The position numbers and the translations under genes are program-made. The notes under the pieces were generated by a model. The model was not told where the DNA came from and made no database searches. It saw only the letters and a program-made list of their open reading frames with translations. A stretch of DNA of 42,925 nucleotides from Tepidisphaeraceae bacterium (lineage in GTDB: Bacteria; Planctomycetota; Phycisphaerae; Tepidisphaerales; Tepidisphaeraceae). The stretch is from contig DASRRR010000110.1 of the NCBI GenBank assembly GCA_035656825.1, positions 1 through 42,925 on the forward strand. Direction: 5' to 3'. Positions 6,901 to 42,540 of this stretch are shown in pieces; position 1 is the stretch's first letter, and the number at the start of each line of letters is the position of its first letter.

Positions 6901-7183
6901 GCGGAGGGTTGGAATTGTGAAAGGCGACACTTGGGTGAATGGGCCGGAGCGGATTGGTTCGCCGGCGTCGTTGGTGGGGAGGTCGAGGACCAGGGACGAT
7001 TCTCCAGCGGCTGAGGCGAGCAGCGATTCGGCGGCGAGTTCGCCGATCATGGCGCGCAGGCGTTCGACGGTTAGTGCGCGCGGGTGCGGGCGGGCGCCAG
7101 TGCCGGGCGTGTTGGGGCTGGGATCTCCGTCGTCGGACCAGAGGTGCAGATGAGATTGAAACCAGGCGGCATGGAGTGGCATC
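3913..7183 (-). CDS. SNF2-family helicase (DEAD/DEAH box helicase with N-terminal SNF2-helicase-associated domain), ~1090 aa; alternative upstream start at 7320
   Basis: Motif I LADDMGLGKTVQLIALLL, DEAH-like LALDEAQKIKN, motif VI-type HELICc LRAGGLGLNLTAANHVFHFDRWWNPAVEAQATDRAYRIGQTRKV. The 46 codons between 7320 and 7183 have atypical composition, so Met at 7183 is preferred. Confidence 0.85.
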
Positions 7184-7350
7184 GTTGTGTTTGGTGATCG
7201 CGGGCGGTCAGGGGATTTTTCGCACTTCCGCCCCACGTTGGGCCGAGAGCCGAATGGGGAAGCATAGGGCCGAAAAGCGAAATGGGTAGGGGTGGCAAAC
7301 CCCCTCGTAAATTCCGGCAATTGCGGGTAAACTCATCGTGCCGGGCGCTG

Positions 7351-7356: not shown

Positions 7357-7388
7357 CAATTAGCAGCAAACCGGCAAAGGCCGAGTAT

Positions 7389-7460
7389 GCGGGTGTAATT
7401 CAGTGGTAGAATGCCAGCCTTCCAAGCTGGACGTCGAGGGTTCGAATCCCTTCGCCCGCT
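7389..7460 (+). tRNA. tRNA-Gly (anticodon TCC)
   Basis: Acceptor stem GCGGGTG/CGCCCGC with G-T wobble, D-loop AGTGGTAGA, anticodon stem CCAGC/GCTGG with loop CTTCCAA (anticodon TCC), T-arm GAGGG-TTCGAAT-CCCTT, discriminator T; near-identical in architecture to E. coli tRNA-Gly(UCC). CCA not encoded. Confidence 0.9.
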
Positions 7461-7474
7461 TTTCCCCTCTTTGA

Positions 7475-10400: not shown

Positions 10401-10597
10401 CGCAGGCCGATGGCGAGCCATTGGCGGAGGGTGCCGAGGCTGGAGAGGGAGCGCAGGCCGAGGAGGATAATGGGGATGGCGATGACGACGAAGGCGGCGA
10501 TCAGCTTGGGCGCGCCGTAATAGTCGAAATTGAGAGGGGAGGTGAAGGCGAGAAAAGATAGCGGGTTGGGTAGGAGCATGGCTAGGGTGCAAACCAT
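7475..10597 (-). CDS. BatA-like membrane protein: N-terminal double-transmembrane domain, vWA domain, GATase1-like (DUF4159-type) domain, C-terminal TM and Pro/Thr-rich tail
   Basis: N-terminus MLLPNPLSFLAF...IAIPIILLGL (two-TM anchor typical of BatA/TIGR02226), DVSQS vWA-like MIDAS start, ...VILDNVPRGAGGLN...GGGLVMIGG GATase1-like segment. Confidence 0.6.
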   Translation of the reverse strand: MVCTLAMLLPNPLSFLAFTSPLNFDYYGAPKLIAAFVVIAIPIILLGLRSLSSLGTLRQWLAIGLRLLVLLFIILILGGVRWQRVNKDLEVFVVRDVSQSTTNVKDYPGGSLQSSIEDQIRQVVKRQKPPADRIGVISFARAADVDAMASTSLELGAGAIRERQEGTDAAAALQLAMAAGAQDAMHRLVLFWDGNATTGDLDPVLNMAAANHIPIDVVPLRYNVTNEVMIDRFVVPTFKRENEPYSVDVILRSTNPVTVTGKLSITQEGHPIDLNPGTGGTTPSRRVTLQPGLNRVSVQVPGTDVAGVYRFHATFEPDHSPSQPAADSILENNSADGFTFIRGKGRLLYVDQSRDNGSQYVIGALAKEGIEVRPDDRISASQFPNNLASLEAFDAVILDNVPRGAGGLNDSQERVLTSYVSQLGGGLVMIGGDSAYGAGGWQGSKLEEILPVSMDVPAQRQIPKAALVLIIDAIEQPEGNYWAQQCALKAVETLSAGDDVGVISWPGKVVWDYPIQPKGDGTHVNAAIKSMNPGDFPSFDDMMLAALNGANGQPGILANDARQKHVIIISDDDPQAPTEATLEAYRKAKITVSTVIDFPHGGVDPNSIMTHISEATKGRTYGPIYSNISQLPQIFVKEATVVRRSLIHEEKDGIQVKTPPSMSDLVKGIPGFPSIYGLILTSKKQSPFIEVPLLAGKSNDPLLAHWQTGQGHVAVFTSDAHNLWASGWVGSPMFSKFWSQVVRGTARSPLSTDLQPTITNDGQKGHISIEALNKDAGFQSFLNITGTVIGPDGSSQDIHPVQTGVGTYSTDFKTPLPGAYVVALHYQGPGHTSPGFVIAGTAVNGSPEMRDLHSNDVLLQQVADRTGGRVLPAFDLTNDTNWFRRENLYPSVASTPIWDLLIPFLLALLLLDIANRRVAWDWQTVLRLTRKAADYVRSFTVLTAPQGSGATLSALRGIREKVTEERFTPKPNPTPRPVPTARFEAPTGVEGDITKLVGGADGNTTTPSKPTPSNTPPGTTTTGSLIAAKRRAQQQMKRDQ

Positions 10598-18363: not shown

Positions 18364-18609
18364 AAGCGCTTGCATTGGAAAATTTGGGCGGTACAGTCCC
18401 GCTCTCTCGGGCGGCAACGTGCCCCTGGTGCCACGCACCTTGCAGGGAAGTCGGTGACGGAGCGACACGCTCTTATTCCGACGCGGACGCGCCGCTGTGA
18501 TGGACGTTTCAATCTTTCGGTCGGTATGCCACTGTCCTGATGCGAATCGGGATGGGAAGGTGATCGGAAGACAGTCCTAAGCCAGAAGACCGGCCCGGGA
18601 AACAGGTCT

Positions 18610-18624
18610 GACACAACGTGTGTC
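18610..18624. promoter_or_regulatory. perfect 6-3-6 palindrome GACACA-ACG-TGTGTC nested in an outer GGCCCG/CGGGCC inverted repeat (18592..18629)
   Basis: Directly visible in the intergenic region between the amidohydrolase stop (18363) and the PEP-CTERM gene start (18777). Confidence 0.35.
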
Positions 18625-18776
18625 GGGCCAACCGTATTCGTCCTCGCGATTCGGGACGGCCGGGTCTGGCTTCCAATCCAATTGTGGCTGGTTGTGCGCT
18701 CGCTCTGGCGATGGCGCGCAAGATGCACGTTTGCGTTGGCGCTTGCCCATGGCCTTCCCGCAGGAAGGAGCGACCC

Positions 18777-19721
18777 ATGGGTCGTAGCGCTATTCGGAGC
18801 GGCATCGTTGCCGCTGGTCTGATTCTGGTTGGAAATTCTTCAACCCTGCTGGCGGCAGTCTCTGCGACGGTGGTCCCCGGCACGCTGGTGCAGGGATCGG
18901 TGCAAGCCTCACTCGGGGCGGGCACGACGTACAACAATGAAGGGAGCAATCTTCGTGATTGGCCGCTGGACACGGGTGGGACGGCGACCAACAAGTACGC
19001 CATCAGCCTCACCAATGCCAATTTCAATGGCAATTCCTTTGGCGGGAGCCTGAATTCCATTCTGGCGTTTGGAAATGGAGGCGGCGTGACGCTGAAGTTC
19101 GATTCGCCGATCCATCCGGTCGATGGGCAAAAAGAATTCGGGATCTTCACCGCCCAGATGATCATCGCCTCCAGCGGCGCGATCTTCAGCGGCAACATGG
19201 AGGCCGCAATTCTCGTCAGTGATGATGGAAACAGTTGGTATACGCTGGACGGAGCCTCGGTGGCGTCTCCGACGACGTATGTGGCGACGAGTTACAAGCT
19301 CAATGCGCCGACGATGTCGTATGACTATACGACCTTCGCCAAGGGGTGGACCTACGGATCGCCCGGAACGACGCCGGCAAATCTGAGCGCGCTGGCGGTG
19401 GCGAATTACCAGACACCCATGCCGGATGACTCCCTGTTTAATGGTGCCGGGACCAATGCCCAGCGCTTGGCGCTCAAGACCGACACCTCCACGGCGGATT
19501 ATGACGCAGTCATGGGAACCTCCGGCGGAGGAAACTGGTTCGACATCTCCGGCAGCGGACTGGCCGAGGTGAATTACATTCGCCTTAATGGGGTGAACGT
19601 AGGGACCGGATCATTCAATGGCGACCGCCTGGATGCGGTGTTCGCCAACGCGCTGGCTGTGCCGGAACCAAGCGTGCTGGGCGTGATAATGATGGGAGTG
19701 ATGTTGCGACGTCGCCGGTGA
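18777..19721 (+). CDS. PEP-CTERM sorting-domain protein (secreted, exosortase substrate)
   Basis: GGAAGGAG RBS-like stretch before ATG; signal peptide; C-terminal VPEPSVLGVIMMGVMLRRRR (PEP motif + TM helix + Arg-rich tail). Confidence 0.75.
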   Translation: MGRSAIRSGIVAAGLILVGNSSTLLAAVSATVVPGTLVQGSVQASLGAGTTYNNEGSNLRDWPLDTGGTATNKYAISLTNANFNGNSFGGSLNSILAFGNGGGVTLKFDSPIHPVDGQKEFGIFTAQMIIASSGAIFSGNMEAAILVSDDGNSWYTLDGASVASPTTYVATSYKLNAPTMSYDYTTFAKGWTYGSPGTTPANLSALAVANYQTPMPDDSLFNGAGTNAQRLALKTDTSTADYDAVMGTSGGGNWFDISGSGLAEVNYIRLNGVNVGTGSFNGDRLDAVFANALAVPEPSVLGVIMMGVMLRRRR

Positions 19722-19747: not shown

Positions 19748-19775
19748 GCCCACCGACCGCGGTCGGTGGGCTTTG
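19748..19775 (+). terminator. Rho-independent terminator after the PEP-CTERM gene
   Basis: Perfect 24-nt GC-rich palindrome GCCCACCGACCGCGGTCGGTGGGC followed by TTTGG, 27 nt downstream of the stop codon. Confidence 0.6.
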
Positions 19776-19811
19776 GATGAACATGCACTCTTCCTTAGAG
19801 ACAGGAGCGCC

Positions 19812-20543
19812 ATGCGCGCGTTTACGTTGATTGAATTACTCGTGGTCATGGGGATTGTGGTGGTAGTGATGGCAATCTTGCTACCCGCGCTGGGAATTGC
19901 CCGGCAGTCGGCGCAGCGCGTGCAGTGTTTGAGCAATCTGCGGCAGATGGTGATTGCGGCCAATATTTATGCGGACCGGTTTCATGGGAGTTATCCCATT
20001 GCGTATTATTCAGATAACTCCGGCGGCGTCGTTACAGATTACGCCTGGGATTTGACGACGATTTCAGGAGGAACTGAGCCGACGCGTGTGGTGGCGGGTT
20101 TGCTTTGGGAAGGGAAAGGAGCGGGAGCGATTCAGCAGTGCCCGTCGTTTGATGGAGATGCGAATTGGCTGGTCGATCCGTTTACAGGATACAACTACAA
20201 CACCAGTTATATCGGGCATGGACAGTTTGAGACGGTGGAGGCGCCAGCGAAGATGGTGGCGATCCGCCGGCCGGTCGAGGTGGCGATCTTTGGCGATGGA
20301 CAGTGGGGAGACGGCGCAAATAAGTTTATGCGCGCCCCTTGGCCGAGTGCGGGGGATCTAGGATTCATCGGCCGCTGGGGCGGGACGCAGGGATTTCGCC
20401 ATCGCGGGAAAACCAATGTCGCATTTTGCGACGGCCATGCGGAGTCGTTGGCGGATCGGTTTGTGGAGAATGCCGATGGGGCGGAGAACGTCGCGAAAGG
20501 AACGGGCTTCTTGTCGGCGGATAATCGGGCATATGGGCAGTAG
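19812..20543 (+). CDS. DUF1559 / H-X9-DG domain protein with prepilin-type N-terminal cleavage/methylation leader
   Basis: N-terminus MRAFTLIELLVVMGIVVVVMAILLPAL (type IV pilin-like class III signal); C-terminal RHRGKTNVAFCDGHAESL contains the H-X9-DG motif. This family is abundant in Planctomycetes/Verrucomicrobia. Confidence 0.8.
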   Translation: MRAFTLIELLVVMGIVVVVMAILLPALGIARQSAQRVQCLSNLRQMVIAANIYADRFHGSYPIAYYSDNSGGVVTDYAWDLTTISGGTEPTRVVAGLLWEGKGAGAIQQCPSFDGDANWLVDPFTGYNYNTSYIGHGQFETVEAPAKMVAIRRPVEVAIFGDGQWGDGANKFMRAPWPSAGDLGFIGRWGGTQGFRHRGKTNVAFCDGHAESLADRFVENADGAENVAKGTGFLSADNRAYGQ

Positions 20544-29240: not shown

Positions 29241-30494
29241 ATGTCCGAACCGACCATCGCTCCCGAGCCTGATCTGAACCAGCCCCCCAAGGGGGCGCTT
29301 GGCATCATCTTCCTCATTGCCTTAATCGACCTCTTGGGCTTTGGGATCATCATCCCGCTCATGCCCTTTTACGCCAAGATGTATGAGGCGTCCGCGTTGC
29401 AGGTCACCCTCCTCTTTTCCATTTACTCCATCTGCCAATTCATCGCCTCTCCGCTGCTGGGTGTGATCAGCGATCGGTATGGTCGGCGTCCCGTGCTGAT
29501 CCTCTCTCAGATCGGCTCAGCCATTGGCTATGTTCTGCTCGGCGCTGTCACACAGTTCCATTGGACCAGCGCAACGGTCGCACTTCTACTTATCTACACG
29601 TCCCGCATAATCGACGGCATCTCCGGCGGCAATATCTCCACCGCCCAGGCCTATATCTCCGACGTCACCACCGCCGCCAATCGCAGCAAAGGCCTCGGCG
29701 TGATCGGTGCCGCCTTCGGCATCGGATTCACCCTCGGACCCGCCTTCGGAGGCATCCTCGGCGGCATCCACCCCTCTTTCCCCGGCTACGCCGCCGCCTG
29801 CTTCAGCCTCCTCGCCGCCTTCCTGACCTACCTCAAACTCCCCGAATCCCGCCAGCATAAACCCGTCGAAGCCGAAGCCTGGCTGCACCCGCGCGTCTTC
29901 GTACCCATCCTCCGCAAGCGCATCCTCCTCCACCTCCTGCTCATCGGCACCGTCTCCATGGGCGCGTTCGTCATGATGGAATCCACCATTGCCATCTACC
30001 TCGCCCGCGACGACACCTTCCATTGGAACATGACTAAAGTCGGCCTCTACCTCTCCCTCGTCGGCCTGGTCATCGCCGGCGTGCAGGGCGGCTTGATCGG
30101 CCGCCTGACCAAGCTCTTCGGCGAATGGCCCCTCACCCAGACCGGCCCCCTTCTCGTCGCCGCCGGCATGGCGCTCTTCGTCGGCGTCGATTATCACCCG
30201 GTCCTCTACATCCTCATCCCCGCCGGCATCATCAACGCCACCGGCCGCAGCATCACCACCCCCACACTCTACGCCCTCATCTCCAAATCCTGCGCCCCGG
30301 ACGAACAAGGCACCGTCTTCGGGCTCCTCCAAGGCCTCTCCGGCATCGCCCGCGTCATCGGCCCCATCGTCGCCGGCATCGCCTACGAACATCACCCCAC
30401 CAGTCCCTACTGGCTCTCCGGCTCCATCATGCTCGCCGTCATGCTCTGGACAATTTCCGTCCACTCCATGTCCAAACGCACCGTGGCGATCTAA
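29241..30494 (+). CDS. MFS transporter (12-TM, Tet/TCR-like)
   Basis: LGFGIIIPLMPFY, GRRPVLILSQIGSAIGY, motif-A-like loop, 12 hydrophobic segments. Confidence 0.8.
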   Translation: MSEPTIAPEPDLNQPPKGALGIIFLIALIDLLGFGIIIPLMPFYAKMYEASALQVTLLFSIYSICQFIASPLLGVISDRYGRRPVLILSQIGSAIGYVLLGAVTQFHWTSATVALLLIYTSRIIDGISGGNISTAQAYISDVTTAANRSKGLGVIGAAFGIGFTLGPAFGGILGGIHPSFPGYAAACFSLLAAFLTYLKLPESRQHKPVEAEAWLHPRVFVPILRKRILLHLLLIGTVSMGAFVMMESTIAIYLARDDTFHWNMTKVGLYLSLVGLVIAGVQGGLIGRLTKLFGEWPLTQTGPLLVAAGMALFVGVDYHPVLYILIPAGIINATGRSITTPTLYALISKSCAPDEQGTVFGLLQGLSGIARVIGPIVAGIAYEHHPTSPYWLSGSIMLAVMLWTISVHSMSKRTVAI

Positions 30495-31057
30495 ACCGGA
30501 TCGGTAGAATTCCCCGCCGGCAACGACGGCTGATTACCGCCATCCGACATCATTTCGCTTACCACCTCTTTCGTCCGCTTATCATTCAAAAGCTGGCTGA
30601 TCAGCACCCGCCGATACCCCGTGCTGCGAAGCTGCTCCTTAATGGCATCCGTCCGCTCCTGCCGCAGCTTCTCATTCTGCGTGTATAACGCCTCTTCCAG
30701 CGCCTCGTTCTCCAGCAGCAGCGCGTACATCGCCTCCGCCTTTTTCCCGCCCGATGAAAACAACCCGCCAAACCCTGCGGCTTTCTTACGGTATTCCTCC
30801 ACGCGCTGGTTCAGCACCCGCACCTGCTCGGCCAGCGCCTCATTCTGCGCTTTCAGATTCGCCAGCTCCGTCTCATACAGAGTGCGAAATCCCTTCTGCG
30901 TCGTAAACAACTCCTGTTCCTTGGTCGCCAGATTCCGGCGATGCCCCACGCCGGCGAAGAATCGGCCCATCTGGTAGCCAAGGAAGAGAAGCACAATTAC
31001 CACCACCCCCGCGATGACGTAGAAGAGAATTTGGATGAGTTGGCTGTCGAAATGCAT
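30491..31057 (-). CDS. membrane-anchored coiled-coil protein (hypothetical; YhcB/DUF1043-like topology)
   Basis: N-terminal TM ILFYVIAGVVVIVLLFLGY followed by heptad-rich ELANLKAQNEALAEQVRVLNQRVEEYRKK. Confidence 0.45.
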   Translation of the reverse strand: MHFDSQLIQILFYVIAGVVVIVLLFLGYQMGRFFAGVGHRRNLATKEQELFTTQKGFRTLYETELANLKAQNEALAEQVRVLNQRVEEYRKKAAGFGGLFSSGGKKAEAMYALLLENEALEEALYTQNEKLRQERTDAIKEQLRSTGYRRVLISQLLNDKRTKEVVSEMMSDGGNQPSLPAGNSTDPV

Positions 31058-31151
31058 GCAATCATAGTAGCGTCAATCGCCGGATCGGGCAGCGCGGGAT
31101 AGAAGACTTATTTGGGACGTTCTGGCCGCTGGGGTAAAGTCATTGGCTGCG

Positions 31152-31952
31152 ATGAACCAGCCGCTTCCCTCTATCTCGATCGTCACGCCGTCCTACAACC
31201 ACGGGCGATTCATTGATCGAACCATCCAAACTGTCCTGAATCAATCGCTGCCTCCTGTCGAATATCGGGTCATGGACGGCGGATCGACGGATGAAACCAT
31301 CGCCATCCTGAAAAAGTATAGCGACCGCCTGCAATGGGTATCCGAAAAAGACAAAGGACAAGCCGACGCCATCGACCGCGGATTTCGCCAATGCACCGGC
31401 GATATCATTTCCTGGCTCAATTCTGATGATCGTTTCGCCAATGAAAACGTTCTCAAAAGAGTCGCGGAGGCGTTCGCGGCCGATGCAACCGTCGACATCG
31501 TCTACGGCGATGGCGAATTGATCGATCTGGATGGGCACTCTTTCCGGCAATCGCGCGGAGCCGCTGTCAAACAGGCGAAAGAGCTGCTCATCCTCCCGGC
31601 CGGCTTTGCGCTTCAGCCAGCGATCTTCTTTCGCCGGCAACTCTATCTCGATGCCGGCGGAATCGACGGCCGATTCTTTGGCGCATTCGACTATGACCTC
31701 TGGCTCAGAATGTTCGCAAAGGCCCGCCGAGTGACTTATCTCCCCGAAGTCCTCGCCCAGGCGACCTGCCACCCGGACGCTAAATCCGTCAAAGGAATGT
31801 GGCGGCTGATCGGCGAACTCGTCGAAATCAAACGCAAGAACGAACGCCCCTTCGCATTAACCTGGCTTGAGCGCATCCGCATGCGGATCAATGTGCTCGG
31901 TCTCTACGCCTACTACGTCGCCGTGCGCACCGGATTGCGGCGGGCGGTCTAA
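31152..31952 (+). CDS. glycosyltransferase family 2
   Basis: ISIVTPSYNHGRFIDRTIQTVLNQ...YRVMDGGSTDET...DKGQADAIDRG...WLNSDD (DxD). The ORF as listed begins at a TTG (31143); first ATG at 31152. Confidence 0.85.
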   Translation: MNQPLPSISIVTPSYNHGRFIDRTIQTVLNQSLPPVEYRVMDGGSTDETIAILKKYSDRLQWVSEKDKGQADAIDRGFRQCTGDIISWLNSDDRFANENVLKRVAEAFAADATVDIVYGDGELIDLDGHSFRQSRGAAVKQAKELLILPAGFALQPAIFFRRQLYLDAGGIDGRFFGAFDYDLWLRMFAKARRVTYLPEVLAQATCHPDAKSVKGMWRLIGELVEIKRKNERPFALTWLERIRMRINVLGLYAYYVAVRTGLRRAV

Positions 31953-33017
31953 ATGGGAAAACGACTCGGCATCAACCTCGTCTTCCTCAACCCTGACCGC
32001 GCCGGCGGCGCCGAAACCTACGCACGGTCCCTGCTGCGCGAATACCAGCAATTGGACCTCGACCTTGACGGCCGGATAAAACTCTTCGTCGGACGCAGGC
32101 ATGGATTGAATGTCGACCCCGAGCGTTTTGAGCTGGTCGAATGCAACATCAACCCCCGCCATCAATATCGCCGAATCATCTGGGAACAGACGCATCTGCC
32201 CGGCATTCTCAACCGCCATCGGTTGGACGTTGTGCATTTTCCTTATTCGGCCTATCCAATTCGCTATCGCGGGAAATGCGTCGTCTCTCTTCACGACACG
32301 ACGCGCTTCGTCGCACCGCGCGGCGTGCCGCGGGCGCAAATCTGGTATCGCCGCGTGATGGAAGAACGCCTGCGCGACCGCGGCCATCACGTTATCGCCG
32401 TCTCCCATGCCGATGCGGCAATCCTACAGCAGCATTTAGGTCTGCCGGATCAACAGATGTCCGTCGTGTATCACGGCGTGTCTGATCAGTTCCGCGTCGA
32501 ACGCCCTTTTGAAGGAACACGCGACTATCTCCTTTGGGTGGGCCGACCCTACGAACACAAGCGATTGGACACGCTTATCGAAGCCTATGAAATGATGACC
32601 AGCAACGCGCCGAAATTGAGGTTAATCGGCATAAACGATGCTTCACGTTTCAGCGTTGGAGCAAATGTATCCGTTGAAAAAGGCGTCAATCACACGGACC
32701 TGGCTGGTATCTATCAACGAGCACTAGCGCTTGTATTTCCAAGCTCATACGAAAGTTTTGGCTTGCCCGCGCTGGAAGCGATGGCGTCCGGCACAGCGGT
32801 GATCTGTTCCGACATCCCCGCTTTCCGCGAACTGTTCTCCGGAGCAGCGGAATTCACCAAAGTTGCGGATGCCGGCACTCTGGCACAAGGGATCGAAAAG
32901 ATTATTAAAAATCCCGCGCTCAGATGCGAAATGGAATTGAAAGGGATCGAACTCGCCCGGGAATTCACCTGGCGGCGGTGCGCAGAGGAGACGATGCGAA
33001 TCCTCAGGCGCGTTTGA
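31953..33017 (+). CDS. glycosyltransferase family 4 (GT-B, retaining)
   Basis: C-terminal GRPYEHKRLDTLIEAY...FPSSYESFGLPALEAMASGTAVICSDIPAFRELF (EX7E motif). Confidence 0.85.
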   Translation: MGKRLGINLVFLNPDRAGGAETYARSLLREYQQLDLDLDGRIKLFVGRRHGLNVDPERFELVECNINPRHQYRRIIWEQTHLPGILNRHRLDVVHFPYSAYPIRYRGKCVVSLHDTTRFVAPRGVPRAQIWYRRVMEERLRDRGHHVIAVSHADAAILQQHLGLPDQQMSVVYHGVSDQFRVERPFEGTRDYLLWVGRPYEHKRLDTLIEAYEMMTSNAPKLRLIGINDASRFSVGANVSVEKGVNHTDLAGIYQRALALVFPSSYESFGLPALEAMASGTAVICSDIPAFRELFSGAAEFTKVADAGTLAQGIEKIIKNPALRCEMELKGIELAREFTWRRCAEETMRILRRV

Positions 33018-33999
33018 ACTCGGGACGATGAGAAAGAGCCGTCAGCTTGGACCAGGCGCGTATCGTGCGCACACTGAGATACGCCAGCGGGAGGAGCATG
33101 GCGATGCAGAACCCTGACAGGTAGAAAGAGTAGGCGAAGCAGAACGAGGCGTCGTAGACGATAAGCCAGAGGAGGCCGACGAGCATCAGTTGCTGGCCGG
33201 CTTCGCGTGGGGTCGGAAAGCTGCGGCGAATGTAGAACGCGACGCCAAGGAAAACCGCCGCCGCCAGACACGGAATTAAAAGGCCCGGGGTGAGGAGCAT
33301 CACCTGTGAAAACGATCCTTCCGCCGAGCGATGCGCATAGATCGCGAGGATCACGATTGCGTTAATGCTGACCAGCGAAGTCACCACAAACGCCCAGTGA
33401 GCCCGTGTCAGTGGCGGACGCTTTTGCTCCCAGCGATACGCGACCGTCGAAAGGAGCGTAACGTGGTTGAGCAGCAGCAATGGCTGCCATAACACCGGCA
33501 GATGCGGGGCGGGGATGGCGGCGTGGAAAAATCGGATCAGGCCGAGCGTGAGAAGTCCGGGAGCGACCAGATATTTGCCGGCAAAGTCATAAAATGTGAT
33601 GAGCACGATTGCGAAGCAGACGATGATCACCGGGCGCTGGCCGAGCGCCGGAGAGAGCTGCGAATAAAACTCTGCCGAGCCGATCGCCAGTAGTGCCAGT
33701 GCCGCGGCAATGATATGGGCGGTGTTGACGCCAATCCGCCCCGAGGGGAGGGGGCGATGCGCCGCCGTCAAGGCATCGCGGCGGCGGTCGATGATGTCAT
33801 TGAGCGACATACCAAACCCGTATAAGCCAACAGAAAGCAGGACGACAAAGAGCAGCGCCAGCGGCGAAATGGGAAGGCCGGAAAAATGGCGGTGTAGTAC
33901 ATACGCACAGGAGGAATCCGCAATCGCTGTAAAGACCAGCGCCATGCGCGTCAGTTGCAACAGCGGAAGTAAGCGATTGGGAAGACGCATAGTCGGCAC
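33004..33999 (-). CDS. UbiA-family prenyltransferase (integral membrane)
   Basis: NDIIDRRRD (NDxxDxxxD) in first cytoplasmic loop, 8-9 TM segments; alternative start at MALVFT (33945). Confidence 0.75.
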   Translation of the reverse strand: MPTMRLPNRLLPLLQLTRMALVFTAIADSSCAYVLHRHFSGLPISPLALLFVVLLSVGLYGFGMSLNDIIDRRRDALTAAHRPLPSGRIGVNTAHIIAAALALLAIGSAEFYSQLSPALGQRPVIIVCFAIVLITFYDFAGKYLVAPGLLTLGLIRFFHAAIPAPHLPVLWQPLLLLNHVTLLSTVAYRWEQKRPPLTRAHWAFVVTSLVSINAIVILAIYAHRSAEGSFSQVMLLTPGLLIPCLAAAVFLGVAFYIRRSFPTPREAGQQLMLVGLLWLIVYDASFCFAYSFYLSGFCIAMLLPLAYLSVRTIRAWSKLTALSHRPEFKRA

Positions 34000-34058
34000 C
34001 AGACTCCTGATTCAGCCCGGCTTGGCAGGGTGGGGTGTCATGCCTATTGTAGCGAGCT

Positions 34059-34556
34059 ATGAGCATGAAAGCCCCAGCGGCCATTGCAACCCGGATTCCC
34101 TCATCCGCCCGCGTCGGTGTCGTAGCCGCTCGGTTTAATGCCGAGCTGGTCGACGAGCTATTAAAAGGCTGCTTGCAACGACTGAAAGAATTGGGCATTC
34201 CGGCGGCGCGGGTGACGGTGGAGCGCGTGCCGGGGGCGTTTGAACTGCCGGTGGCGGCGCAGGCGTTGTGCCGGACGAAGCGCTATGGGGCGGTGATTTG
34301 TCTGGGAGCGGTGGTGCGCGGGGAGACGCCTCATTTTGATTTCGTGGCGGGCGAATGCGCGCGGGGGATCGCGCGAGTGGGACTGGATGAGAATATGCCG
34401 GTGATTTTTGGCGTGCTGACAACCAACGACGACGACCAGGCCTGGGCCCGCGCCGGCGGCAAACACGGACACGTCGGCAAGCAATCCGCCGAGGCGGCGG
34501 TAGAGATGATCGGCGTGCTGAACCGATTGCGCCCCAAACGGCGGGTGCGGGCATGA
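34059..34556 (+). CDS. ribH: 6,7-dimethyl-8-ribityllumazine synthase
   Basis: VGVVAARFNAELVDELLKGC...VERVPGAFELP...GAVVRGETPHFDFVAGECARG... Confidence 0.9.
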   Translation: MSMKAPAAIATRIPSSARVGVVAARFNAELVDELLKGCLQRLKELGIPAARVTVERVPGAFELPVAAQALCRTKRYGAVICLGAVVRGETPHFDFVAGECARGIARVGLDENMPVIFGVLTTNDDDQAWARAGGKHGHVGKQSAEAAVEMIGVLNRLRPKRRVRA

Positions 34557-35506
34557 AACGCGTGGTGCGGCCTTTGATTTATCGTCTGCAACAATCGTTG
34601 CAACGCCGACGCCAGCAGCGAAAAGTCCAGCAGGCCTTGCGCCGCCGCCAACCCGCGGATCCGATTTTCATCTTCGGCTTATCCCGCAGCGGGTCCACCT
34701 GGCTGCAGGACACCATCGGCGCCTGGCACGGGACGGTTTCACTATTCGAGCCGATTCATAAAAAAAATCCCGAGACCATTGGCGCGTTCACGCTCGAAGA
34801 CTGGCGGCCGGGCCAGCAGATGAGCGCCGACGAGCGCCGCGTGCTCGACTCCATTCTGCGCGGAGAGATTTTAACCAAGCGCATTTTGCCCGCCGGACCG
34901 ATGCCAGATGAAATCAACCGTTTCTGCATCAAGTTAATCCACTGCAACAACGGCATGCCGCGCATGGTGCATGACCTGCGCCCACGCTACCGGCCGCTGA
35001 TCATTCTGCGGCATCCGTGCGCCCATGTTGCATCATGGAAACGGCTGAAATGGACCGAAAATTTCGGCGGCCTCGCCGGTCGATATAACGGCCTGCTGGC
35101 GGCGCACCCGCATTTGCGCGAACCCGTCAGCGGGCTATCAACGCCGCTGGATTGGATGGTCGGAAGCTGGTGCCTGGGAAATTATGTCCCGTTGGCGATC
35201 AAGCCTGCAAACCGGTGGACGGTTGTCCGATATGAATCGTTGTTAGCCGAACCGGAGCGAATTCTCGGAGAGATTTTTGCGACCTGGGGAGAGGCAGCCA
35301 TTCCCGCCGAAGTGCTGGGCGCGGTCGGGCGCGTAAGCCGGACCACCTGGCGAAAGGGGCAACCCGCCGGCGCGGTGGCGACAGCCAATTCCTGGCAGGA
35401 AGAGATCAGCCTCGAGGAGAGCCGACAGGTATTTGAAATCTGCCGACGTTTTGGGGTCGAGGTGGACGCTGGTGGATACATGATGAAATCGGGCGGGATC
35501 GGATGA
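34553..35506 (+). CDS. sulfotransferase-family protein
   Basis: IFIFGLSRSGSTWL (5'-PSB PAPS-binding loop), ...ILRHP... (3'-PB-like); start overlaps ribH stop (ATGA). Confidence 0.7.
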   Translation: MKRVVRPLIYRLQQSLQRRRQQRKVQQALRRRQPADPIFIFGLSRSGSTWLQDTIGAWHGTVSLFEPIHKKNPETIGAFTLEDWRPGQQMSADERRVLDSILRGEILTKRILPAGPMPDEINRFCIKLIHCNNGMPRMVHDLRPRYRPLIILRHPCAHVASWKRLKWTENFGGLAGRYNGLLAAHPHLREPVSGLSTPLDWMVGSWCLGNYVPLAIKPANRWTVVRYESLLAEPERILGEIFATWGEAAIPAEVLGAVGRVSRTTWRKGQPAGAVATANSWQEEISLEESRQVFEICRRFGVEVDAGGYMMKSGGIG

Positions 35507-36894
35507 GCCAGCGACGATCTCCGCCGGGACCTTGGAATCCGCCGCTGACGAGTTTGTGGCGGCAACGTGATCTATTGCGATTCCTTCTGCGAATCGGCTC
35601 GCAATACGGCGACCTCTGGCGCTTCCGCGTCGGCAGGCGAAATTATTATGTCCTCAACCATCCGGATCACATCCGCCAAGTCCTGATCGCCGACGCCTCC
35701 AAGTTCATCAAAGGCCCAGCGATTCGCAATGCGCGCATCACGCTCGGCGATGGACTACTCTCCAGTGAAGGCGACCTGCATAAGCAGCAGCGCCGGCTGA
35801 TTACCCCCGTATTTCATCCCACCCGCGTCGCAACCTACGCGGAGCGAATGGTGCAATGTGCTGAAACCATGTGCGCCCATTGGACTGACGGCCAGGTGAT
35901 CGATCTGCACCAGCGAATGACCGCCCTGACCCTCGACGTCGTCACTCAGGTCCTCTTCGGCGGAGAAATCGGCACCGATGTCGGACGCATCGGTGCTGCG
36001 ATGCACGTCCTGGTGAACATGTTTGACCGCGCAAGAAATCCACTGGCGCCACTGCTGAATAAATTGCCGCTGCCAAGTAATTTCCGGTTTCTGCGTGCGC
36101 TGCGCGAAGTGGAGGCAACGCTTCAGGGATTTATCGAAAACAAAAAACGCGGCAATCGCGATCCGAAAAATCCTCCGGATTTATTAGAACTGCTCCTGGC
36201 GACCGGCGGAATGTCGGATAAGCAATTGCGCGACGAAGCGGTGACGCTCTTCACCGCCGGCCACGAAACAACCGCCAACGCGCTGGTCTGGACGTGGTAT
36301 TTGCTCGCGCAGCATCCCGAGGCAGAGCAAAAGTTCCACGAGGAACTCGACCGTGTGCTTGGAGATCGCCTGGCGCGATCAGAAGACCTGGATCATCTGC
36401 CCTATACGCGCATGGTGCTATCCGAATCGATGCGGCTCTACCCGCCCGCGTGGATCGTGGCGCGCCAGGCGGTGGAGAATTACGAAATCGCCGGCTACCC
36501 CATCGCTGCCGGTTCAGTGCTGCTGATGAGTCAATATCTGATCCACCGCGACCCAAGGTTCTGGGGAGATGACCCGACCCGATTTGATCCAGGCCGATTC
36601 ACCGAAGACGCCAAATCCCAGCGCCCGCGCTGGGCCTACTTTCCCTTCGGTGCCGGCCCACGCTCCTGCATCGGCGAAGGTTTCGCCTGGGTCGAGGCGA
36701 TGCTGCTGCTGGCAACCATCGGCCGGCGCTGGCGCTTGCAACTCGTCGACCCACACCAAACGGTGCATTTGCACGCAACCATCACGTTGCGCCCCGAAAA
36801 TGCCATCCCAATGCGGCTGATCAGACGCAATCCCCCGCCGGGCGTTGCCAGCGTGACCCGCGTCTCTATACTGCCACGCGATGCTGACGGTTAA
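35503..36894 (+). CDS. cytochrome P450
   Basis: I-helix FTAGHETTANAL, ExxR ESMRLYPP, haem-binding FPFGAGPRSCIGEGFA; start overlaps the sulfotransferase stop (ATGA). Confidence 0.9.
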   Translation: MSQRRSPPGPWNPPLTSLWRQRDLLRFLLRIGSQYGDLWRFRVGRRNYYVLNHPDHIRQVLIADASKFIKGPAIRNARITLGDGLLSSEGDLHKQQRRLITPVFHPTRVATYAERMVQCAETMCAHWTDGQVIDLHQRMTALTLDVVTQVLFGGEIGTDVGRIGAAMHVLVNMFDRARNPLAPLLNKLPLPSNFRFLRALREVEATLQGFIENKKRGNRDPKNPPDLLELLLATGGMSDKQLRDEAVTLFTAGHETTANALVWTWYLLAQHPEAEQKFHEELDRVLGDRLARSEDLDHLPYTRMVLSESMRLYPPAWIVARQAVENYEIAGYPIAAGSVLLMSQYLIHRDPRFWGDDPTRFDPGRFTEDAKSQRPRWAYFPFGAGPRSCIGEGFAWVEAMLLLATIGRRWRLQLVDPHQTVHLHATITLRPENAIPMRLIRRNPPPGVASVTRVSILPRDADG

Positions 36895-37381
36895 GGAACG
36901 ACAACGCGTGCGCGAACTGGCGATGCAGGTCCTTTTTGCCTGGGACGCCGCCGGTACGGGCACCGCGGACGAAGCCGCCGCCCGCCAGATCATGCACGAC
37001 GGCAGCGACAACCCCGTCGTGCGCCAGCAAGCGGGCGAACTGGCACTAAAAACCTGGGACCAGCGCGAGATGATCGATCAGCGCCTGGAGCGCTTTGCCC
37101 CGAATTGGCCCCCACGCCGCCAGCCGGCAGTCGATCGCAATCTGTTGCGATTGGCGGTCTATGAACTCACCAACACAACTCTCCCGCCACAGATTTTGAT
37201 CGACGCGGTGATTGAGATCGCCCGCCAATTTTCCACCTCCAACAGCTCCGCGTTCGTCAACGGCGTGCTCGACGCGATCCTCAAAGAACACAACGCCCTG
37301 ATCGCGGGCCTCCCCCCGGCGGTGGTCGAACCCATCCCCGCCCCGACCGAAGGGACCGGCCCCGGAGAAGTCATCGAGTAA
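36881..37381 (+). CDS. nusB: transcription antitermination factor NusB
   Basis: RQRVRELAMQVLFAWDAAG...AVDRNLLRLAVYEL...IDAVIEIARQF...FVNGVLDAI; overlaps P450 3' end by 14 nt. Confidence 0.85.
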   Translation: MLTVKERQRVRELAMQVLFAWDAAGTGTADEAAARQIMHDGSDNPVVRQQAGELALKTWDQREMIDQRLERFAPNWPPRRQPAVDRNLLRLAVYELTNTTLPPQILIDAVIEIARQFSTSNSSAFVNGVLDAILKEHNALIAGLPPAVVEPIPAPTEGTGPGEVIE

Positions 37382-37392
37382 CGCAACACATC

Positions 37393-38346
37393 ATGGGCTT
37401 CTTCTCCAAAACCATCGATAAACTCAAAGGGGCGCTGCGAAAAACCGCCGCCGTCCTGAATACGGACGTGCGCACCCTCTTCGTCCCCGGCCGCCAGATC
37501 AACGACGAGTTCCTCCAGGAAGTCGAAGAAAAACTCCTCCTCGGCGATTTCGGCGTGCAAAACACAATGCGCATCGTCGACGAAATCCGCGACAAATGGC
37601 GCCTCGGCAAAATCCGCAACGCCGGCGAAGCCGAAACCATCGTCCGCGAACAACTCCTCACCGGCTGGGGCGATCCAACATTACGCGAACTCAAATTCGC
37701 CCCCGCGGGCACGCCCACCGTCATCATGGTCTGCGGCGTCAACGGCGCCGGCAAAACCACTAGCATCTCCAAGCTCACCTGGCTCCTCACCCAGCAGATG
37801 CACAAGAAAGTCATGCTCTGTGCCAGCGATACATTCCGCGCCGCCGCCGTCGAGCAGCTTTCCATCTGGGCCGGCCGCCTCGGCGTCGAAATCGTCAAGC
37901 ACAAGATGGGTGCCGACCCCGCCGCCGTCGCCTACGACGCCTGCGAAGCCGCCAAGTCCCGCGGCATGGACGTCCTGATCGTCGACACCGCCGGCCGGCT
38001 GCACACTCAGGACAACCTCATGCGCGAGCTCGCCAAAATCCGCGACGTCATCGCCAAACGCATCCCCGGCGCGCCCCACGAAGTCATCCAAGTCATGGAC
38101 GCCACCGCCGGCCAGAACGCCATCCGCCAGGCGGAAATGTTCCATAAAGCCGTCACGCTCACCGGCCTCTTCGTCGCCAAACTCGACGGCACCGCCAAAG
38201 GCGGCTTCGTCTTCTCCATCCGCGACCAGCTCAAAGTCCCCGTCAAATTCATCGGCCTCGGCGAGACCCCCCAGGACATCGAAACCTTCGACCCCGCTCG
38301 CTTCATTAACGCCCTCTTCGGCGACCCCGGAGCGGCCGAGTCGTGA
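37393..38346 (+). CDS. ftsY: signal recognition particle receptor FtsY (short form without acidic A-domain)
   Basis: MVCGVNGAGKTTSISKL (G1), DTAGR (G3), ...KLDGTAKGG (G4-region). Confidence 0.9.
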   Translation: MGFFSKTIDKLKGALRKTAAVLNTDVRTLFVPGRQINDEFLQEVEEKLLLGDFGVQNTMRIVDEIRDKWRLGKIRNAGEAETIVREQLLTGWGDPTLRELKFAPAGTPTVIMVCGVNGAGKTTSISKLTWLLTQQMHKKVMLCASDTFRAAAVEQLSIWAGRLGVEIVKHKMGADPAAVAYDACEAAKSRGMDVLIVDTAGRLHTQDNLMRELAKIRDVIAKRIPGAPHEVIQVMDATAGQNAIRQAEMFHKAVTLTGLFVAKLDGTAKGGFVFSIRDQLKVPVKFIGLGETPQDIETFDPARFINALFGDPGAAES

Positions 38347-39554
38347 GCGCCCCCGCCACCCAGCGCGACGTCCGCATCGCTTATATCGTCGAAGGAATCG
38401 CCTGCCTCGGCACCAATCTCCTCCTCATCGGCGTCTACTTCTACACCCACTCCCGCCTCGGCTGGACCCTCAAACAAAATTTCCTCCTCGCCACCGGCCA
38501 AGGCCTCGTCGGCGGCGTCGGCTCCCTGCTCGCCCACCCGATCTCCTCCCGCCTCTCCCGCCGCGGCGCCCTCATCGGCATCTACATCGCCATGGCGCTC
38601 CTCCCCGCCATCCTGCTGATGGTCGATTCCGCCGCCGCCATCGCCACGTTGCTCCTGATCTACACGATGGTCGTCAGCCTCAGTTGGCCCATGCTCGAAA
38701 GCTTCGTCGCCACCGGCGTACAACACGAAGAACTCTCCCGCCGCATCGGCATCTACAACCTCGTCTGGTCCGGTGCCGCCGTCCTCATCATCGCCGCCAG
38801 CGGCTGGCTGATTAAGCACATCCCCTCCGCGGTCTTCATCGTCCCACTGGTCGTTCATGCCGTCTCCGCGATCCTGATCATGCTCGTCCGCGAACCGGCC
38901 GACCCGGATGTCGCCCACGAAGCCGTCCACGCCGAACCCGGACTCTTACAACTTCGCCGCCTGGCGCTTGCGCTCTCCCGCGTCTCTCTCCCCGCCACGT
39001 ACGTCGTCATCTACAGCATGATGGCGATGCTTCCCTCATTACCCGCTATCCGCACACTCTCCCCCACCATGGCGACCCTCATCGGCAGCACCTGGATGGC
39101 CGCCCGCTGGCTGACCTTTCTCATCCTCGGCTCGACCGTCTGGTGGCACACCCGCCCGCGCATCCTCGTCGCCGCCGCCATCGCGATGGTCCTCGCTTTC
39201 CTCGGCATCATCCTCCCCGGCTCGCGCGTCTGGATCTGGGCCGGCTCCTCCGACTCTGCCCTGCTCTCCTGGATGATCGCCTCGCAAATCCTCCTCGGCC
39301 TCTGCGTCGGTGCCATCTACGCCGCCAGCCTCTACTTCGGCATGGTCCTCTCCGGCGGCTCGGCTGAACACGCCGGCTACCACGAATCCCTCATCAACTT
39401 CGGCTCCGCCATCGGCCCCATCGCCGGCGTCGTCGCCGAAGTCTGGTACCCCGGCAACATCTACGTCGTCGTCTCCGCCGTCACCGGCGTTGTCGGCCTC
39501 TCGGTCGCCGCCACAGTCTTCACCTCCCTCCTCGCCGGCAAGCGCCAAGCTTAA
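38343..39554 (+). CDS. polytopic membrane protein, probably an MFS-type transporter
   Basis: ~12 hydrophobic segments in 6+6 arrangement; no sharp motif; start overlaps ftsY stop. Confidence 0.45.
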   Translation: MSAPATQRDVRIAYIVEGIACLGTNLLLIGVYFYTHSRLGWTLKQNFLLATGQGLVGGVGSLLAHPISSRLSRRGALIGIYIAMALLPAILLMVDSAAAIATLLLIYTMVVSLSWPMLESFVATGVQHEELSRRIGIYNLVWSGAAVLIIAASGWLIKHIPSAVFIVPLVVHAVSAILIMLVREPADPDVAHEAVHAEPGLLQLRRLALALSRVSLPATYVVIYSMMAMLPSLPAIRTLSPTMATLIGSTWMAARWLTFLILGSTVWWHTRPRILVAAAIAMVLAFLGIILPGSRVWIWAGSSDSALLSWMIASQILLGLCVGAIYAASLYFGMVLSGGSAEHAGYHESLINFGSAIGPIAGVVAEVWYPGNIYVVVSAVTGVVGLSVAATVFTSLLAGKRQA

Positions 39555-41191: not shown

Positions 41192-42205
41192 ATGGCAACT
41201 GAAACAATCAATGATTCCCAGGACAACGCAGTCGTCATGGACGCCTACTCCAAGGCCGTCATCGGCGCCGTCGACACCGTCGCCCCCGCCGTCGTCAATA
41301 TCGAAGTCGAACGCGAACTCCCCGCCAACCACCCCGCCCGCCGTTCCGGCCAGGAACGCGGCCCCGCCGGCGCCGGCAGCGGTTTCATCATCACCCCCGA
41401 TGGCTTCATCCTCACCAACAGCCACGTCGTCCATGGTGCCGACGGCATCACCATCACGCTCTCCGATGGTTCCAAATACCCCGCCACCCTTGTCGGCGAT
41501 GACCCCGACACTGACCTTGCCGTCATCCACACCACCGCCCCCGGCCTGCACGCCGTCACGCTCGGCGACTCCGCCGCGCTGCGCCCCGGTCAGCTCGTTA
41601 TCGCCATCGGAAACCCCCTCGGCTTCCAGGCGACCGTCACCGCCGGCGTCGTCAGCGCCATGGGCCGCACCTTCCGCTCCAAAAACGGCCGCCTCATCGA
41701 CAACGTCATCCAAACCGACGCCGCCCTCAACCCCGGCAACTCCGGCGGACCCCTCGTTAACTCCCATGGCCAGGTCGTCGGCGTCAACACCGCCATCATC
41801 CCCTCCGCCCAGGGCATCTGCTTTGCCGTCCCAGGAAACACCGCCAAGTGGGTCGCCGCCCGACTCATCCGCGACGGCCACATCCGCCGCGCCTACCTCG
41901 GCGTCGCCGGCCAGGACGTCCCGCTCCAACGCAAAGTCGTCCGCTTTTTCGGCCTGGAAAACCAGTCCGGCGTCCTCATCGTCGGCGTCGAAAATGACTC
42001 CCCCGCCTCCCGCGCCGGGCTCCGCGAAGGCGACATCCTCCTCTCCGTCGACGGCTACGAAGTCGAAACCATCGACGCGCTCCACAAACTCATGAACGAA
42101 GACCGCGTCGGCCAGGTCGTCGGCATCCGACTCCTCCGCGGCACAGAAGTCATCCGCATCGAAGTCACCCCGATTTCGGGACAGCAAAATCCGTCCCCGA
42201 ATTAA
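41192..42205 (+). CDS. HtrA/DegP-family (S1C) serine protease with C-terminal PDZ domain
   Basis: GSGFIITPDGFILTNSHVV (His), DLAVIH (Asp), GNSGGPLVNSHGQVVGVNTAI (Ser), PDZ ...GVLIVGVENDSPASRAGLREGDILLSVDG... Confidence 0.9.
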   Translation: MATETINDSQDNAVVMDAYSKAVIGAVDTVAPAVVNIEVERELPANHPARRSGQERGPAGAGSGFIITPDGFILTNSHVVHGADGITITLSDGSKYPATLVGDDPDTDLAVIHTTAPGLHAVTLGDSAALRPGQLVIAIGNPLGFQATVTAGVVSAMGRTFRSKNGRLIDNVIQTDAALNPGNSGGPLVNSHGQVVGVNTAIIPSAQGICFAVPGNTAKWVAARLIRDGHIRRAYLGVAGQDVPLQRKVVRFFGLENQSGVLIVGVENDSPASRAGLREGDILLSVDGYEVETIDALHKLMNEDRVGQVVGIRLLRGTEVIRIEVTPISGQQNPSPN

Positions 42206-42540
42206 AACGGCAGCGCAATCCGCCGCGTCGTCTCATCCAACGGCACGATCTCCACCCGCAGCGTACTCGCCGGCAGCAGCGACTCCACTCGCGAAGGCCA
42301 TTCCACCACCACCACCCCCCCCTGCTCCAATAACTCCAAAAAACCAATCCCCTCCAGATCATCTGCCCCCGCCGTCCGGTACGCATCCAGATGAAACACC
42401 GTGAGCGAAGCCGTCGGATAAATATTCAGCAGCGTAAACGTCGGCGAAGACACCATCCGCCTATTCCCCCCCAATCCCAGCACCATCCCCCGCACAAACT
42501 GCGTCTTCCCCGCCCCCATCTCCCCCGCCAGCGCCACCAC
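42202..42540 (-). CDS. tsaE: tRNA threonylcarbamoyladenosine biosynthesis protein TsaE; true N-terminus probably extends ~27 codons upstream (to ~42650) but no canonical start codon is found there
   Basis: VVALAGEMGAGKTQFVRGM (P-loop), SSPTFTLLNIY. In-frame upstream codons encode ...FERVSNSVEETEGIAGEFARGLPGGS typical of the TsaE N-terminus, bounded by a stop at 42655..42657 with no ATG/GTG/TTG between. Confidence 0.7.
   Translation of the reverse strand: MVALAGEMGAGKTQFVRGMVLGLGGNRRMVSSPTFTLLNIYPTASLTVFHLDAYRTAGADDLEGIGFLELLEQGGVVVVEWPSRVESLLPASTLRVEIVPLDETTRRIALPF

Follow-up and report, generated by a model that had tools for sequence, protein, structure and literature searches.

A cytochrome P450 and, in one sub-lineage, a rare sulfotransferase-fold protein inserted into the ribH-nusB pair of a Tepidisphaeraceae clade

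The DNA considered here is contig DASRRR010000110.1 of the Tepidisphaeraceae assembly GCA_035656825.1 (42,925 nt, called the window throughout), in which ribH and nusB are separated by genes for a sulfotransferase-fold protein (ST) and a cytochrome P450. We found an orthologous P450 adjoining ribH and/or nusB on nine distinct Tepidisphaeraceae-type contigs, and, with a probability of roughly 0.6, we read the locus as an old variant, shared by a clade of this family, of the gene order ribH-nusB-ftsY, and not as a recent island. The P450 insertion can be taken as an old, vertically inherited clade trait because it occurs in nine lineages, because the linked P450s are monophyletic and because their G+C content at third codon positions (GC3) matches that of each host.

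How unusual is a separated ribH and nusB? The first-pass annotation of this DNA had assumed that the two genes are normally contiguous, and this agrees with what we observed in 80 diverse bacterial ribH loci, among the matches listed from species genomes. In about 55 of the 80, nusB lies directly 3′ of ribH, and in none of them does a P450 lie between the two. This baseline is mostly non-planctomycete and includes only 2–4 Planctomycetota; two other Planctomycetota (L019 and L077) carry a contiguous ribH-nusB-ftsY. Taken together, the baseline and these two loci indicate that ribH-nusB(-ftsY) is the ancestral state. Like the canonical arrangement, the window has bona fide equivalogs of both genes, which keep their customary order and orientation and precede ftsY, a gene that other Planctomycetota also have 3′ of nusB. 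RibH scores 153.7 bits against the TIGR00114 cut-off of 84.6, NusB scores 104.7 bits against the TIGR01951 cut-off of 88.35, and RibH is 62–72% identical to that of the relatives. It departs from the canonical arrangement in the P450 interposed throughout the clade, in the ST and P450 together in the window and in an apparent, conserved promoter of nusB's own. A flavin mononucleotide riboswitch 5′ of ribH was also looked for, and none was found near the gene.

All four genes lie on the plus strand at the positions that the first-pass annotation gave (Table 1), with overlaps of 4, 4 and 14 nt, so its description of two tailoring-type enzymes embedded in the ribH-nusB pair is correct as to gene order. 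The ST start overlaps the ribH stop in an ATGA at 34553–34556, the P450 start overlaps the ST stop in a second ATGA at 35503–35506, and the nusB ATG at 36881 stands 5′ of the P450 stop codon TAA (36892–36894), giving the overlap of 14 nt. The tight packing extends beyond nusB: ftsY begins 11 nt 3′ of it, and the start of a major facilitator superfamily (MFS) transporter gene overlaps the ftsY stop by 4 nt (GTGA), which makes six genes from 34059 to 39554 with a largest gap of 11 nt, the MFS gene being the last of the plus-strand run. The start codons agree with those of homologues. The N-terminus of RibH (MS[TM][KQ]AP) is conserved, the conserved PPGP of the P450 is preceded by 6 residues, and the NusB domain starts at residue 9 of the nusB product. 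Furthermore, a JGI contig of 43.4 kb and a Logan contig both carry the identical locus, and the P450 is identical to a protein of a Tepidisphaeraceae metagenome-assembled genome (MAG; Planctomycetota, Phycisphaerae). That the same order recurs across independent assemblies and in eight other related lineages indicates that the arrangement is not due to chance.

The nine lineages comprise the window and eight further distinct orthologues, whose P450s are 50–71% identical. In the sister lineage of the window, recovered from three separate runs (L003/L004/L005), a minus-strand UbiA gene is followed by ribH-ST-P450-nusB-ftsY. The string ribH-P450-nusB-ftsY occurs in L008/L009 and also in L174, where it is preceded by GT2 and a minus-strand UbiA gene. 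A minus-strand UbiA gene with ribH-P450 and then unrelated genes is found in L010/L011, L012 and L173, and the same beginning, read up to the P450, in L093. L006 has a beta-lactamase-like gene followed by P450-nusB-ftsY. The simplest reading of these arrangements is that the string was broken independently at least twice 3′ of the P450 and once 5′ of it, and with so few breaks no case can be made that selection ties the P450 to ribH and not to nusB. As to whether the insertion is lineage-specific, a check proposed in the first-pass annotation, the answer is divided: the ST is restricted, among the nine lineages, to the window and its sister, and the P450 insertion is not private to the window. 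Several automatic start codons on the short Logan and JGI contigs are misplaced. In L003 (gene calls at 831, 1672 and 2929) the calls truncate the ST by 86 aa and the P450 by 41 aa and lengthen nusB by about 12 aa, so that the GTGA overlap and the promoter geometry are hidden; the 302-nt ribH-P450 gap in L012 (8001) may likewise come from a misplaced start call.

A neighbour-joining tree of 87 P450s groups the nine linked sequences in one clade (bootstrap 74/100), within which the window and L003 are sisters (98/100) and L006 stands next to them. A further 78 homologues from soil have no link to ribH, nusB or UbiA. The GC3 of the P450 gene tracks each host genome (0.70 in L010, 0.85 in L174 and 0.94–0.95 in L008 and L012), which argues for long residence. 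A recent horizontal transfer of the P450 was therefore rejected, since GC3 follows each host and the linked P450s are monophyletic.

How might housekeeping genes tolerate such an insertion? The heptamer CTATACT is invariant 8–10 nt 5′ of the nusB ATG in five lineages (window, L003, L006, L008 and L174), with diverged flanks, and TTGCCA-N16 before TATACT is common to the window, L003 and L006; in L003 the element reads TTGCCA-N16-TATACT followed by 8 nt. The window copy matches 10 of 12 consensus positions and lies inside the 21-aa C-terminal extension of the P450. This conservation suggests that nusB probably keeps a promoter of its own. At the other end of the locus, TATTGT stands 8 nt 5′ of the ribH ATG in both the window and L003; the P450 start in L003 is preceded by TATGAT and 8 nt, and several relatives have −10-like elements 5′ of the P450. 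A scan for plus-strand terminator-like sites between ribH and ftsY found none. The first-pass annotation had proposed that the four genes are co-transcribed and had named separate promoters as evidence against it. The proposal holds at best for ribH-ST-P450, which looks from the sequence like one coupled unit with no terminator-like site, and probably does not extend to nusB, for which a separate promoter is predicted.

The −10-like geometry is not confined to this locus. Across seven loci (L001, L008, L009, L010, L012, L173 and L174), 15 of the 59 genes with at least 50 nt of upstream spacer have a TAnnnT ending 5–12 nt 5′ of the start codon, compared with 4.3 ± 2.0 in shuffled sequences (maximum 11 in 500). 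The starts preceded in this way lack an obvious Shine-Dalgarno sequence. The enrichment suggests that leaderless or very short-leader mRNAs are common in this Tepidisphaeraceae group; a literature search on leaderless mRNAs in Planctomycetes returned nothing usable. In the arrangement that we propose, ribH-ST-P450 would be transcribed from the −10 element 8 nt 5′ of the ribH ATG as a leaderless mRNA, and the ST and P450 would be translated by termination-reinitiation at the ATGA junctions. The nusB-ftsY-MFS genes would keep their own conserved promoter, now buried in the 3′ end of the P450 gene, which would leave essential genes independent of read-through from the inserted ones. A side observation concerns L174, in which the 204-nt P450-nusB spacer contains, at 7385–7560, a long inverted repeat of tandem heptamers, (TGCAAAA)n facing (TTTTGCA)n. 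It resembles a large hairpin or a repetitive extragenic palindromic (REP)-like element and separates the P450 stop from the predicted nusB promoter.

The spacers allow the history to be laid out in three steps. A single P450 insertion between ribH and nusB would have occurred in the clade ancestor and then been inherited vertically, with UbiA facing ribH. The rare ST would have been added later at the ribH-P450 junction, before the window and its sister diverged, with its start overlapping the ribH stop; in L003 the ST starts at a GTG in a GTGA overlap. Finally, in the window, the ST-P450 and P450-nusB spacers would have been closed through read-through of both upstream open reading frames (ORFs). 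The ST-less relatives have spacers of 70–200 nt, and in L003 the ST-P450 spacer is 22 nt and the P450-nusB spacer 64 nt; the set of overlaps of 4, 4 and 14 nt is found, among the relatives, in the window genome only. The window ST carries a 5-aa extension, and the last 21 aa of the window P450 form a C-terminal extension that no homologue in the alignment has. These extensions explain the overlaps, as the upstream ORFs appear to have read through the former spacers.

Several observations weigh against an old, vertically inherited variant with its own promoters. The linked-P450 clade, drawn from a neighbour-joining tree, has moderate bootstrap support (74/100). L013 and L014, which are Phycisphaerae/Tepidisphaeraceae with ribH about 60% identical, have no P450, UbiA or nusB near ribH, so the trait defines a clade and not the whole family. 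Sampling of Tepidisphaeraceae is patchy, and both collection scans describe what was among the matches listed. The block at 30.5–37.4 kb has a codon bias that differs from its flanks, which could mean import by recombination, instead of simple vertical descent, in the window genome. Promoter-like matches in the region are not above the level of shuffled sequence (3 compared with 1.8 ± 1.3), and the promoters are predictions from conservation and consensus. As for the enzymes, no redox partner, no gene for synthesis of 3′-phosphoadenosine-5′-phosphosulfate (PAPS) and no terpene synthase was found among the annotated genes of the window.

Table 1. Genes and predicted promoter elements around ribH and nusB in the window
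Feature	Position	Strand	Basis
ribH, 6,7-dimethyl-8-ribityllumazine synthase	34059..34556	+	PF00885 DMRL_synthase 178 bits; TIGR00114 153.7 bits
ST, PAPS-type sulfotransferase-fold protein, 317 aa	34553..35506	+	Sulfotransfer_3 31.6 bits
P450, soluble cytochrome P450, 463 aa	35503..36894	+	PF00067 296 bits
nusB, transcription antitermination factor	36881..37381	+	PF01029 98 bits; TIGR01951 104.7 bits
ftsY, signal recognition particle (SRP) receptor	37393..38346	+	SRP54 249.5 bits and SRP54_N
MFS transporter	38343..39554	+	ORF list; MFS_1 for the gene called in L001
GT2 glycosyltransferase	31143..31952	+	Pfam Glycos_transf_2 82 bits
GT4 glycosyltransferase	31953..33017	+	Pfam Glycos_transf_1 85 bits, Glyco_transf_4 61 bits
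UbiA-superfamily membrane prenyltransferase	33004..33999	-	Pfam UbiA 50.8 bits
ribH promoter-like site TTGGCA-N17-TATTGT	34022..34050	+	Consensus scan; 8 nt 5′ of the ribH ATG
nusB promoter-like element TTGCCA-N16-TATACT	36845..36872	+	Scan and conservation; 8 nt 5′ of the nusB ATG

What kind of enzyme is the P450? It matches the Pfam family over residues 18–431 (296.1 bits against a cut-off of 22.8), has no N-terminal membrane anchor and starts just before the PPGP hinge. In a 17-sequence alignment (A2), the heme-thiolate motif FPFGAGPRSCIG contains an invariant C389, E308 and R311 of the K-helix motif ESMR (ExxR) are invariant, and so is the I-helix AGHETT from A252 to T257. The nearest solved P450s are 7wzl and 3dbg (both putative P450s), CYP97A3, CYP97C1, CYP46A1 and CYP102; phmmer searches against solved and characterised P450s gave E-values of 2.9e-62 for CYP97A3, 1.3e-49 for CYP97C1 and 2.4e-59 for 3dbg/3el3. 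We take 3dbg/3el3 to be CYP170A1; the PDB table names it as a putative cytochrome P450 only. The best matches (CYP170A1, pentalenene oxygenase, CYP97A3/C1 and CYP46A1) share with the window enzyme the AGHETT I-helix, the ExxR and the Cys-ligand motifs. Nevertheless, the window P450 falls far below the family cut-offs for the albaflavenone monooxygenase (CYP170A1, NF051859; 270.6 bits against 700) and for the pentalenene oxygenase (NF045812; 260.7 bits against 800), and its place is in a large soil-bacterial P450 clade whose members are mostly solitary and share no recurrent neighbours. By these scores, the albaflavenone and pentalenene oxygenases are relatives of the P450 and not members of the same family. 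By convention, members of one CYP family are at least 40% identical, and the CYP97 carotenoid hydroxylases act on carotenoid rings. The phylogeny that the first-pass annotation had called for places the linked P450s in one clade. In the sequence searches, terpenoid and carotenoid oxygenases are the nearest characterised enzymes, and the P450, intact in its motifs, probably acts as a monooxygenase on a hydrophobic substrate, most likely hydroxylating an isoprenoid. A search of the literature on PDB entries 7WZL/7WZM, the best solved match, and on Tepidisphaeraceae with P450 found nothing usable.

The wider P450 family is large. Its homologues number in the thousands, the best 120 are all about 50% identical, and many of them are named Tepidisphaeraceae; the first-pass statement that P450s are rare in this lineage is thus not borne out for the family. 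Among the 80 metagenome homologues listed (38–50% identity), 79 are unlinked to ribH, nusB or UbiA, as is one acidobacterial (Pyrinomonadaceae) homologue. Clustering found no recurrent neighbour of the 79 unlinked homologues (the largest cluster held 4 loci), and guilt by association therefore gives no function for the wider family. Some individual neighbourhoods can be described. In the acidobacterial locus (L175, 7422–9797), the P450 homologue is followed by Trm112p, GT9 heptosyltransferase-like and PfkB/RfaE-like kinase genes, and two small clusters of shared downstream ORFs elsewhere, in 3 and in 2 loci (with L097, 5263–6408, and L101, 8183–9172, among them), look GT9-like and kinase-like by eye.

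The ST is recognised mainly by its cofactor-binding elements and its fold. Its Pfam match is marginal (Sulfotransfer_3, 31.6 bits against a cut-off of 27) and covers residues 37–73 only, the N-terminal PAPS loop, and among 63 aligned ST relatives Sulfotransfer_3 is found in 61 and Sulfotransfer_1 in 47. A 5′-phosphosulfate-binding loop and a 3′-phosphate motif of the form R…S are general features of sulfotransferases. In the alignment of 63 sequences, the 5′-phosphosulfate loop GLSRSGSTW (42–50) has nearly invariant R45, G47, T49 and W50, and the 3′-phosphate motif RHPCAHVAS (153–161) has invariant R153, P155 and S161; in addition, E66 is nearly invariant and K127 invariant, and these two may correspond to the catalytic Glu and Lys of the CurM sulfotransferase and of tyrosylprotein sulfotransferases (TPSTs). 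A search of the PDB with the single sequence gave no match, and a profile search gave the OLS (E 4e-13) and CurM (5e-12) sulfotransferase domains as the best matches in solved structures. The AlphaFold2 model is of high confidence (pLDDT 92.2, pTM 0.90). When it was searched against the PDB with Foldseek, all 50 matches listed were of the sulfotransferase fold with probability 1.00, one of them retinol dehydratase, at TM scores of 0.33–0.53 (query-normalised) and at most 0.58 (target-normalised) and 10–18% identity. We infer that PAPS is the sulfate donor of the ST and that a hydroxyl group is the acceptor. It shares its fold, the SRSGSTW loop and the RHP…S motif with the CurM/OLS domains, TPSTs, cytosolic sulfotransferases (SULTs) and Stf1; it differs in being a stand-alone protein and not a polyketide synthase (PKS) domain, and its acceptor site matches no characterised enzyme.

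The ST is also rare. A search of 5.8 billion proteins returned six matches, and an exhaustive search of representatives returned 4 relatives at E<1e-30 among 1389. A homologue with 49% identity is found in an unrelated context, away from any P450. The closest relatives with a readable context, P0124 and P0126, belong to the same Pfam families and are of similar length (22–25% identity across the alignment, 23–29% in local alignments). Both lie directly after GT4 genes in clusters of the polysaccharide (exopolysaccharide) or O-antigen type, whereas the window ST lies between ribH and the P450. Such distant relatives (L176, 5965–7894, and the P0124 contig) overlap the GT4 3′ end, and their clusters include an ABC exporter or flippase, an epimerase and an aminotransferase.

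Upstream of ribH, the UbiA, GT2 and GT4 genes described in the first-pass annotation are present, as the Pfam matches show. UbiA, divergent to ribH, keeps its position in seven of the nine lineages and is a UbiA-superfamily member (50.8 bits against a Pfam cut-off of 34.2), with weak PDB matches to digeranylgeranylglyceryl phosphate (DGGGP) synthase and chlorophyll synthase. Its best NCBIfam match, EboC (NF035940), was ruled out at 76.1 bits against a cut-off of 250. The GT4 start follows immediately on the GT2 stop, and the 3′ end of GT4 converges on and overlaps that of UbiA. In most relatives, conservation of the locus does not extend to GT2 and GT4; a GT2 gene upstream of UbiA is also found in L174.

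Could the P450 and the ST act in turn on the same molecule? It is possible, though tentative, that the P450 hydroxylates a lipid or isoprenoid (possibly UbiA-prenylated) and that the ST sulfates the same hydroxyl to give a stable sulfated membrane lipid or pigment, for example a hydroxy-carotenoid sulfate. The two genes are adjacent and coupled in both ST-bearing lineages, the nearest characterised relatives of the P450 oxidise carotenoids, sesquiterpenes and sterols, and UbiA is kept beside ribH-P450 in most of the lineages. Bacterial carotenoid sulfates exist; the paper describing them identified no sulfotransferase gene for them (PMC6627997). On the other hand, most lineages have the P450 without the ST, which means that the P450 product needs no sulfation, the 49%-identical ST homologue is away from any P450, distant ST relatives sit in glycan clusters, and no carotenoid or terpene synthase was found among the window genes. 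The ST could instead be a glycan or glycolipid sulfotransferase that works with the upstream GT2 and GT4, perhaps on a UbiA-made polyprenyl carrier, and is functionally independent of the P450; this is also a tentative possibility. The two distant relatives that directly follow GT4, the GT2-GT4 pair 1.5 kb upstream in the window and the GT2 beside UbiA in L174 are consistent with a glycan role. However, the glycan-cluster relatives are only 22–25% identical in the alignment, GT2 and GT4 do not travel with the locus in most relatives, and the ST is on another transcription unit than GT2/GT4, with the oppositely oriented UbiA in between. We regard hydroxylation and sulfation of one substrate as plausible, with precedents in P450-plus-ST chemistry and in bacterial carotenoid sulfates, but its support does not exceed that for an ST acting independently on glycans. 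More doubtful still is an extension of the first of these proposals, in which UbiA and the ribH-linked P450 would make up a conserved pathway, defining for the clade, to a core membrane isoprenoid such as a lipid or pigment that is first prenylated and then hydroxylated. Constant demand for the product would keep the pathway in a housekeeping neighbourhood, and the ST, nearly an orphan, would extend it to a sulfated isoprenoid lipid, undescribed in Planctomycetota.

Sulfation can also serve to activate a hydroxyl, as in the CurM/OLS sulfotransferases, retinol dehydratase and sorghum LGS1, the last of which acts after a P450 in strigolactone biosynthesis. The ST could, by analogy, sulfate a P450-made hydroxyl as the leaving group for an elimination or cyclisation, leaving a final product without sulfate. 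The adjacency of P450 and ST recalls LGS1-type pathways, hydroxylation followed by sulfation is chemically plausible, and LGS1 ("sulfation-assisted BC-ring formation") and retinol dehydratase are both among the fold matches, as OLS and CurM are the best profile matches. We nevertheless consider this unlikely: the likeness is one of general fold, at the TM scores and identities given above, and no thioesterase, PKS or cyclase partner was found nearby among the window genes. As a further difference from LGS1-type pathways, most lineages with the P450 have no ST. Less likely again is a functional basis for the ribH-P450 adjacency itself, in which the P450 would act on a lumazine- or flavin-derived compound or depend on a local flavin supply. 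The adjacency is kept in eight of the nine lineages, three of which have lost nusB from the neighbourhood. However, L006 keeps P450-nusB without ribH, the string is broken too seldom (at least twice after the P450, once before it) to reveal selection, ribH itself is a canonical equivalog, none of 79 P450 homologues from other taxa, among the matches listed, is near ribH, and the −10-like elements before the P450 in several relatives suggest separate transcription. Finally, the overlaps could be an artefact of a chimeric MAG contig or of frameshift errors. The deviant codon bias at 30.5–37.4 kb might be read in this way, but the same locus appears on two records, the same gene order recurs in the sister lineage from three separate runs and in seven other lineages, and all four ORFs are full length with intact motifs, which makes an artefact barely conceivable. 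An old gene-order variant of the clade remains our preferred description of the locus.

The composition of the window has features of its own. Most of its genes have an extreme C-ending codon bias, with GC3 of about 0.83 and a third-position skew, (G−C)/(G+C), of −0.6 to −0.8, and this produces whole-sequence GC skews of ±0.3–0.4 whose sign follows gene orientation; a bias this extreme is absent from the relatives. The block at 30491–37381, which runs from a gene for a 188-aa hypothetical protein through GT2, GT4, UbiA, ribH, ST and P450 to nusB, differs, with GC3 of 0.63–0.77 and skews of −0.35 to +0.43, and this could reflect expression level or an imported segment. Two minus-strand genes have the opposite codon-end bias, TsaE (42202–42456, skew +0.90) and the gene for the 188-aa hypothetical protein (30491–31057, +0.43), and both follow the C-richness of the surrounding plus strand and not that of their own coding strand. 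Elsewhere in the window, a full-length cobalamin riboswitch (18392–18612, plus strand, 74.2 bits) lies directly 5′ of an ORF of 367 aa without a Pfam match (18618–19721) and of a gene for a DUF1559/SBP_bac_10 protein (19773–20543), and a tRNA-Gly(TCC) gene (7389–7460, plus strand) lies between an SNF2-helicase gene (minus strand, 3913–7320) and a VWA-domain gene (7475–10597).

The synteny variant is real and moderately interesting. All of its parts belong to well-known superfamilies, and the locus reveals no new enzyme type, no new mechanism and no new kind of system; what is unusual is the place and the history, namely a stable clade-wide insertion, the later addition of a rare ST and a predicted promoter swallowed by a coding region. 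The ribH-nusB pair is a textbook example of conserved gene order, and the locus shows that a stable insertion in it can be tolerated over long evolutionary time. This tolerance seemingly comes from a separate promoter kept by the essential genes 3′ of the insertion, a promoter that in the window would now even lie within the coding sequence of an inserted gene. The sequence of P450 insertion, ST insertion and spacer collapse is informative on how operons grow. Furthermore, the conserved P450, together with UbiA, is a candidate marker of the clade and could be targeted in work on the lipid or pigment chemistry of this largely uncultured family of soil planctomycetes.

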